Source: Escherichia phage vB_EcoM_ESCO32
DNA: 64,000 nt
Sequence record: OM386658.1
Strand: one strand, 5' to 3'
Notes under the pieces: generated by a model
Seen by the model: only the letters and a program-made list of their open reading frames with translations
Told to the model about the DNA's origin: nothing
Databases searched by the model: none
Shown here: positions 56,579 through 56,670 of the stretch, in pieces
How the letters are laid out: each line of letters begins with the position of its first letter
Position numbering within the stretch: position 1 is the first letter of the stretch
Translations under genes and position numbers: made by a program

Positions 56579-56605
56579 GTGATAAGAAACATTCTCCCTT
56601 ATCAC
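56579..56605 (-). promoter_or_regulatory. 8-bp inverted repeat (operator-like or 5'-UTR hairpin)
   Basis: GTGATAAG-(11 nt)-CTTATCAC between the promoter candidate and the start codon at 56560. Confidence 0.35.
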
Positions 56606-56607
56606 TC

Positions 56608-56637
56608 ATTTTATCACGAAAAACAACTCTTTGTCAA
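56608..56637 (-). promoter_or_regulatory. sigma70-like promoter candidate on the minus strand
   Basis: Minus strand reads TTGACA (plus 56632-56637), 18 nt spacer, TAAAAT (plus 56608-56613). Confidence 0.4.
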
Positions 56638-56642
56638 GACAA

Positions 56643-56670
56643 ATAAAAAGCCCCGCCGAAGCGAGGCTTT
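56643..56670 (-). terminator. intrinsic terminator downstream of the tape measure gene
   Basis: Minus strand reads aaagcctcgc-ttcg-gcggggcttttt: a 7 bp GC stem (one G-U pair) plus U run. Pairing is better on the minus strand than on the plus strand. Confidence 0.5.

Follow-up and report, generated by a model that had tools for sequence, protein, structure and literature searches.

The 115-bp gap between the tape measure protein (TMP) gene and the Dit-like gene of a phi92-like coliphage is probably a junction at which transcription of one late unit ends and that of the next restarts, with an inverted repeat that looks like a lineage-specific RNA stem-loop rather than an operator. The gap (56675-56561) lies in a stretch of 64,000 nucleotides from Escherichia phage vB_EcoM_ESCO32 (OM386658.1; henceforth the window). 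Read along the minus strand, it carries an intrinsic terminator, a sigma-70-type extended -10 promoter and a perfect 8-bp inverted repeat, followed by the Shine-Dalgarno (SD) sequence and the start codon of the Dit-like gene (Table 1). The original prediction of a separately transcribed baseplate/tail sub-operon is supported by the recurrence of the same junction in relatives, by covariation in the terminator stem and by the fixed TTGACA, 18-nt spacing and TGn of the promoter. While sequence comparison thus supports a separate baseplate transcription unit, the idea is not new, since the paper on phage rV5 (Kropinski et al. 2013, Virol J 10:76) and several GenBank records precede it.

Gene neighbourhood of the gap

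A 1.5-kb query around the gap matched 55 phage records at 95-99% identity, with Escherichia phage phi92 and other Justusliebigvirus at the top. By its sequence, the window is a phi92-like E. coli myophage (Justusliebigvirus, Stephanstirmvirinae), its minus strand corresponding to the plus strand of phi92. Several records named 'Campylobacter phage' with C. jejuni as host (MG065639, MG065645, MG065656, MG065689 and others) are 98.7% identical to phi92 here, and the host labels on these phi92-like GenBank records are probably wrong.

The minus strand carries all genes from 36961 to 64000. The TMP gene, with its TAA stop codon at 56678-56676, closes a sheath-tube-chaperone-TMP unit, the sheath gene, the tube gene and two chaperone ORFs lying further upstream; the Dit-like gene opens the baseplate unit, with the baseplate plug gene (PF22479) downstream of it. 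As every gap from 56560 to 40889 is at most 15 nt long, the promoter in the gap is a plausible source of transcription for about 15.7 kb of baseplate and fibre genes. Presumably these genes share a transcript that starts at this promoter and extends up to the next hairpin at 40866-40885. The main value of the finding lies in annotation, as it places the transcription-unit boundary between tail shaft and baseplate in phi92-like therapeutic coliphages, which the phi92 record leaves without annotation; nothing about it is unexpected for a large lytic phage. As a separate observation, two ORFs lie at 58675-59432 on the minus strand, one of 160 aa for a tail assembly chaperone and, 47 nt beyond it, one of 75 aa that starts with TTG, a layout that suggests the usual frameshifted chaperone pair upstream of a tape measure gene.

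Table 1. Features of the TMP/Dit-like gene junction and its surroundings (positions in the window)
Feature	Position	Strand	Basis
Tape measure protein gene (TMP; phi92 gp134 homologue)	56676..58655	-	phrog_16051, E=0; annotated so in phi92 and relatives
Intrinsic terminator (predicted)	56641..56670	-	Top terminator match of scan; fold; covariation; GenBank annotation of relatives; rV5 t049 homologue
Sigma-70-type extended -10 promoter (predicted)	56608..56637	-	11/12 match plus TG; chance expectation; kept in relatives
Inverted repeat GTGATAAG-N11-CTTATCAC	56579..56605	-	Perfect 8-bp repeat; RNA fold; conserved within genus
Predicted transcription start zone	56599..56602	-	6-9 nt past -10; spacing rule for E. 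coli RNA polymerase
SD AAGAGG (56575-56570) and ATG (56560-56558) of downstream gene	56558..56575	-	Read directly; ribosome binding site annotated in phi92 record
Dit-like / tail tube initiator gene (phi92 gp135 homologue)	55850..56560	-	PF21821 Dit_like, E=1e-28; several records say 'tail tube initiator'
Packed genes 3' of the Dit-like gene: baseplate plug, hub, wedge, tail fibre, tailspike	40889..55838	-	Gap list; PHROG and Pfam matches

A terminator and an extended -10 promoter follow the tape measure gene

The predicted terminator starts 5 nt past the TMP stop codon with the hairpin AAAGCCUCGC-UUCG-GCGGGGCUUU (56670-56647), followed by UUAUUU, the U-tract reaching 56641. It has a 10-bp stem with six G-C pairs, a UUCG tetraloop (56660-56657) and UUUUUAUUU, and with an RNA folding energy of -16.3 kcal/mol (z = -4.5) it was equalled by none of 200 shuffled sequences, which bears out the GC hairpin and U run that had been proposed at this place. 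In a scan of 48-64 kb it ranked first among the terminator matches, and five of seven stem pairs showed double compensatory changes across nine lineages. The element thus combines a GC-rich stem, a short loop and a U-tract after a stop codon, as in intrinsic terminators, with a structure kept by compensatory changes, and we infer that transcription terminates here. A terminator is annotated at this junction in the GenBank records of Paula (whose gap is identical to that of the window), ASO2A, Schickermooser and phiTE; in the phi92 record, ribosome binding sites are the sole annotation at the gap. An Rfam scan of 56300-56900 returned no known RNA family, only sub-threshold matches that all came from the terminator hairpin.

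The promoter consists of a -35 element TTGACA (56637-56632), an 18-nt spacer and a -10 element TAAAAT (56613-56608). These three parts stand exactly as first placed; the TG at 56616-56615, which had been overlooked, assigns the promoter to the extended -10 type, TTGACA-N18-TGaTAAAAT, and the T-tract of the terminator provides AT-rich sequence upstream of it. It is the best-scoring promoter match in the scan of 48-64 kb, where weak promoter and terminator matches are no commoner than chance, so that only the top matches are meaningful. Matches at 11 or more of 12 positions with a TG number two in the whole window, counting both strands, against 0.19 +/- 0.42 expected from 100 dinucleotide shuffles; the second is a plus-strand match at 34343, ahead of plus-strand genes. 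Between the genes of the window's 27-kb late block, the gap promoter is also the sole TGnTAnAAT, and we found no T4-type late promoter TATAAATA in this block. It has the -35, the 16-18 nt spacer, the TGn and the TAnnnT expected of a sigma-70 extended -10 promoter, and these elements are kept while the surrounding bases drift, consistent with initiation by the host polymerase. The premise that a sigma-70-like promoter would be odd among late genes failed, because the rV5 paper (Virol J 10:76) describes such promoters genome-wide, late region included, 11 of them with an extended -10, along with a late-gene motif TggTAaAAtA.

Two further promoter matches deserve mention in their own right. A candidate internal promoter, TTGCAA-17-TATACT (62523-62551, minus strand), lies in a 44-nt gap that lacks a terminator and is nearly identical in Phapecoctavirus ukendt; it is weaker than the TMP/gp135 promoter. 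An 11/12 match, TTGACA-16-TAAAAT (45741-45768, plus strand), is antisense to a baseplate gene and could be either chance or an antisense promoter.

The junction recurs in large lytic relatives

Of the 14 large lytic relatives examined, 13 carry the pair of terminator and extended -10 element at this gene junction, the remaining Klebsiella lineage having the promoter only. Within the genus, a 126-nt stretch is 100% identical in 48 of 55 Justusliebigvirus records, each of the other seven being one base off. These seven records represent six phages (PHB05 occurs twice), which we aligned together with IMG/VR contig L013. The variants are a C/G difference at 56673 (unpaired, just past the stop codon), a T-tract of different length in L013, and, in phage inny, G instead of T at 56590, within the hairpin loop. 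This loop change is the sole substitution within the repeat among the 55 records and spares the stem. The variant positions within the genus fit constraint on the stems and promoter elements. However, about 250 nt of adjoining coding sequence is as invariant as the gap, the whole of 56505-56756 being nearly invariant in the genus, and we therefore claim no specific selection on the gap.

The promoter is kept in sister genera as well. Phapecoctavirus (ukendt, ZCKP1, ESCO5) keeps the terminator together with TTGACA-N18-TGtTACAAT, and Citrobacter phage Tr1 keeps it with TTGACA-N18-TGaTAAAAT; the terminator is missing from Klebsiella phage phi1_175008 and from IMG/VR contig L016, which keep TTGACA-N18-TGcTATCAT. 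Across these four Stephanstirmvirinae lineages TTGACA, the 18-nt spacing and TGn are fixed, while the spacer and the -10 (TAAAAT, TACAAT, TATCAT) vary. The palindrome, by contrast, is absent from Phapecoctavirus, Tr1 and the Klebsiella lineage, all of which bear the promoter. In its place Phapecoctavirus has a leader with GGAAGAT-N5-ATCTTCC, ending at the same position, and the Tr1 leader has only a GGGG/CCCC stem; neither gives a significant leader hairpin at the TMP/tube initiator junction (ukendt z -0.9, Tr1 z -0.7). For covariation in the palindrome, the comparison therefore consists of 55 close relatives that are identical save for one loop change and of sister genera that are non-homologous there.

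We also inspected more distant phages, namely rV5-like MaxBurger, Cronobacter PBES02, Pectobacterium phiTE, Serratia ChuuTotoro, Klebsiella P8734 and a PVP-SE1-like Salmonella phage. In all six, the TMP stop is directly followed by a GC hairpin, its loop being UUCG or UCCG, and a U-tract; TGnTA(A/C)AAT comes 15-35 nt further on, with only a weak -35. The terminator is thus present at this junction in Justusliebigvirus, Phapecoctavirus and Tr1 as well as in rV5-, CR3-, ChuuTotoro-, P8734- and PVP-SE1-like phages, and TGnTA(A/C)AAT is kept in the rV5-, CR3- and PVP-SE1-like ones. Beyond this group, IMG/VR contigs whose Dit-like proteins are 60-78% identical (L017-L032) have a gap of 0-45 nt after the tape measure gene and a GC hairpin overlapping the stop codon, with neither the promoter nor the TMP/gp135 module; they may be prophage or tailocin-like clusters.

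The rV5 paper had already listed a terminator t049 (GGGGGCTCCGGCCCCC) and a late promoter P048 (TATTTTATCGGTGTTGTAAAAACGGCTATTTTATGAT) in its Table S4 (Virol J 10:76, Additional file 4), and in MaxBurger we find that same sequence at the junction of the TMP and tube initiator genes. The rV5 pair and the window pair, both of them predictions, share the TMP/tube initiator junction and the order of a GC hairpin with U-tract and then TGnTA(A/C)AAT, whereas the -35 of rV5 is poor (TTGTAA) and no hairpin follows downstream. The MEME motif of that paper sits a few bases upstream of TGATACAAT, which we take here as the -10. In the literature we found no transcriptome or transcript mapping for rV5- or phi92-like phages. 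With this junction there is further evidence that even the structural genes of the rV5/phi92 supergroup are driven by host-type extended -10 promoters.

The inverted repeat is predicted to fold as an RNA stem-loop

The 8-bp perfect inverted repeat had been located correctly: its arms, GTGATAAG (56605-56598) and CTTATCAC (56586-56579), flank an 11-nt spacer, and together they cover about -4 to +23 of the promoter. As RNA, the repeat gains two G.U pairs and one A-U pair and is predicted to form an 11-bp stem (56605-56595 with 56589-56579) closed by the loop GAAUG (56594-56590), with a folding energy of -12.3 kcal/mol (z -4.1 to -5.3). The G.U extension is possible only in sense-strand RNA. Since the hairpin lacks a U-tract it is not a classical terminator, and with a strong terminator 40 nt upstream a role as attenuator would be partly redundant.

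A similar arrangement is known from the promoter-early stem-loop (PeSL) cassettes of the T4-like phages RB49 and phi1, which are proposed to stop incoming transcription and to restart it (Arbiol et al. 2010, PMC2839356; Comeau et al. 2014, PMC4122927). Like a PeSL, the gap element has a strong sigma-70-like promoter with an AT-rich upstream region, a stem-loop, and then an SD and a start codon. PeSLs, however, are early promoters flanking ORFans in hyperplastic regions, and they share about 100 bp of sequence and mediate recombination. The gap element instead sits in a conserved structural core of an unrelated phage family, has a separate canonical terminator and does not resemble in sequence the cassettes in the early region of the same genome. 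The promoter, stem-loop and SD/ATG of a PeSL are therefore present, while the repeated similar copies flanking ORFans in a T4-like genome are not. The palindrome is most likely a lineage-specific 11-bp RNA stem-loop, G.U pairs included, of a sort found with many promoters of this genome, and it resembles the PeSL type; a protein-binding operator is unlikely. The repeated pairing of promoters with unrelated stem-loops in this genome takes the PeSL idea beyond T4-like phages, which is modestly interesting.

In the reading that we favour, most sheath, tube, chaperone and TMP transcripts would end at the terminator 5 nt past the TMP stop, and 30 nt on the host sigma-70 RNA polymerase would restart at TTGACA-N18-TGaTAAAAT. 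The restarted transcript would cover about 15.7 kb of baseplate and tail-fibre genes, the Dit-like tube initiator first, so that the baseplate module would be expressed at its own level, independent of heavy sheath and tube transcription. In read-through or processed RNA the hairpin may serve as an extra barrier or insulator and keep the SD open.

This placement of the hairpin in RNA from upstream follows from the predicted start site. E. coli RNA polymerase starts 6-9 nt downstream of the -10 hexamer, and within the zone so predicted A56600 follows a pyrimidine. The stem begins only 2 nt past the -10, and folding it in full takes an RNA whose 5' end is 56603 or further upstream; with initiation at the usual distance, the left arm loses 3-5 bp. 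RNA starting at 56602-56600 keeps a weak structure of -3.7 kcal/mol (z -0.4 to -0.5). Because the left arm contains the predicted start, only RNA from upstream, whether read-through or processed, would form the full hairpin. The SD, in turn, is predicted to be unpaired with a probability of about 0.35 when the 5' end lies at 56602-56599 and of 0.82-0.88 in longer RNAs, figures that are thermodynamic predictions resting on weak helices. Against the favoured reading, sister genera keep the module without a significant leader hairpin, so that a hairpin is not essential to the module.

Other readings of the repeat

It is unlikely that the palindrome has no function of its own, having arisen by chance or duplication and being carried along by a stretch that evolves slowly. 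Perfect 8-bp inverted repeats with loops of 3-20 nt are common, 53 being observed in the 64-kb window where shuffles give 29.6 +/- 6.4, and with about 0.05 expected per 115-bp gap such a repeat is not rare in itself. Moreover, its left arm copies the GTGATAA of the -10 region, it is absent in sister genera, and the near-invariance of its surroundings throughout the genus means that its conservation is not repeat-specific. Chance alone nevertheless sits poorly with an RNA fold at z -4 to -5, with a sole variant among 55 genomes that spares the stem, and with the enrichment of perfect repeats at promoters of this genome: a perfect inverted repeat of at least 8 bp occurs at 6 of 21 promoter candidates (each p <= 0.018), where about 0.4 is expected (p <= 0.02). 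These candidates came from the window and the upstream phi92 segment, and repeats were sought within -22 to +45 of the -10.

A second possibility, which we regard as quite unlikely, is that the hairpin sits at the 5' end of the promoter-initiated mRNA and shields the baseplate transcript from 5'-end-dependent RNase E decay. The stem-loops of the ompA leader and the T7 gene 10 leader stabilise mRNA from the very 5' end of the primary transcript; like them, the gap hairpin is promoter-proximal and directly upstream of a ribosome binding site. Elsewhere in this phage family the geometry would suit such a role: the hairpins at 15466-15484 and in the terL/portal gaps of phi92 and ukendt (z -2.6 to -4.1), with unrelated stems, begin 9-13 nt past the -10, which leaves 1-6 unpaired 5' nucleotides, and early-region cassettes have the same geometry. 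In the gap, unlike in ompA and T7 gene 10, the predicted start lies inside the stem, whose position costs the left arm 3-5 bp, and the weak structure left over competes with pairing between the right arm and the SD.

That same competition would allow the promoter-spanning hairpin to sort two mRNA isoforms of the baseplate operon, with translation of gp135 depending on which promoter made the message. Read-through RNA past the TMP terminator would have both arms, fold the 11-bp stem and leave the SD open; promoter-initiated RNA would free the pyrimidine-rich right arm, which would pair with the SD. The left arm would then act as an anti-anti-SD, present or absent according to where transcription starts. 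Modelled on the predicted folds, this reading is in our view very unlikely.

Equally improbable is the operator of the original prediction, at which a dimeric phage or host protein would bind the palindrome as DNA and repress or time the promoter, holding the baseplate genes until late. In its favour, a perfect dyad at about -4 to +23 is in the classic place to block RNA polymerase, a promoter with a consensus -35 would fire on naked DNA as soon as infection begins and so need timing control, a third GTGATAA copy overlaps the -10 region (56617-56611), and the repeat is invariant in 55 genomes. The lambda OR/OL operators bound by CI and Cro occur in several copies per genome, share a consensus and lie beside the repressor gene. 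Like them, the palindrome is a dyad overlapping promoter and start site; unlike them, it is a single copy with no shared consensus and is not conserved in sister genera. In the window and three phi92 segments we found no second copy of the palindrome and no clusters of half-sites near other promoters; the other copies of GTGATAAG in these sequences are all single, and those within the window are intragenic. The repeats at the other promoters are unrelated in sequence, and hence there is no shared operator and no regulon. Phapecoctavirus, Tr1 and the Klebsiella lineage dispense with the palindrome while keeping the promoter, the G.U pairs that lengthen the stem mean nothing in duplex DNA, and by inspection the spacing fits neither CRP nor a Fur box. 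The operator is thus not supported, and an RNA stem-loop is the preferred reading of the repeat.

Candidate protein sites were also compared by inspection with known consensus sequences, and CRP (TGTGA-N6-TCACA), the Fur box, LexA, the DnaA box and lambda nut/boxB were all rejected for misfits in spacing or consensus. The phi92 annotation lists several 'potential transcription regulators' far from the TMP/gp135 gap, none of them linked to the palindrome.

Other promoters and stem-loops of the genome

The six promoter-associated repeats differ in sequence and in position. Two lie downstream of the promoter (window 15466-15484 and the phi92 terL/portal gap), three flank the -10 (window 29748-29777 and the gaps at 29074 and 40097 of the phi92 segment L036), and one encloses the -35 (the gap at 33269 of L036). 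At the terL/portal junction both phi92 and ukendt have significant hairpins whose sequences are unrelated.

In the three promoters whose -10 lies in the loop of a perfect 8-9 bp inverted repeat, the repeats are TTAATTTGT-N12-ACAAATTAA (window 29748-29777), GGGAGTAT-N10-ATACTCCC (L036 29074-29144) and CAAATATCC-N18-GGATATTTG (L036 40097-40192). The last is followed by TTTTTAT and has one uncompensated mismatch in ukendt. At L036 33269-33323 (phi92 53268-53322), ahead of a tRNA gene, the hairpin AGCCTCT-TGACAA-AGGGGCT holds in its loop the -35 of TTGACA-18-TGtTAGAGT. On the plus strand of the window, 15426-15502 carries TTGACT-16-TATAGT, an 8-bp hairpin GCGGAGGA-ttg-TCCTCCGC (z -4.1) with an SD-like left arm and an anti-SD-like right arm, and then ATTAAAGAGGAG; the layout of a hairpin followed by ATTAA(A)GAGG is common to this locus and the TMP/gp135 gap.

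The early region of phi92 (L044, FR775895.2 127000-148612, locus 11298-19470) carries one cassette in about 16 intergenic gaps: TTGACA-N17-TAnnnT, about 11 nt (often ATCACATAGG), a GC hairpin such as GGCGGGAAATGGTTTCCCGCC, an SD and an ATG. Together these gaps resemble a PeSL-type array, though in a non-T4 phage. The early cassettes and the TMP/gp135 promoter have ATA(A/T)GGG near the predicted start in common.

Finally, GC hairpins also follow the sheath gene, the tube gene and two tail-fibre/tailspike genes, the loci being 59990-60007, 59455-59474, 40866-40885, 38848-38886 and 36934-36957. The one behind the sheath gene has no clear U-tract, and the set includes a bidirectional terminator at the convergent junction of the plus- and minus-strand blocks.
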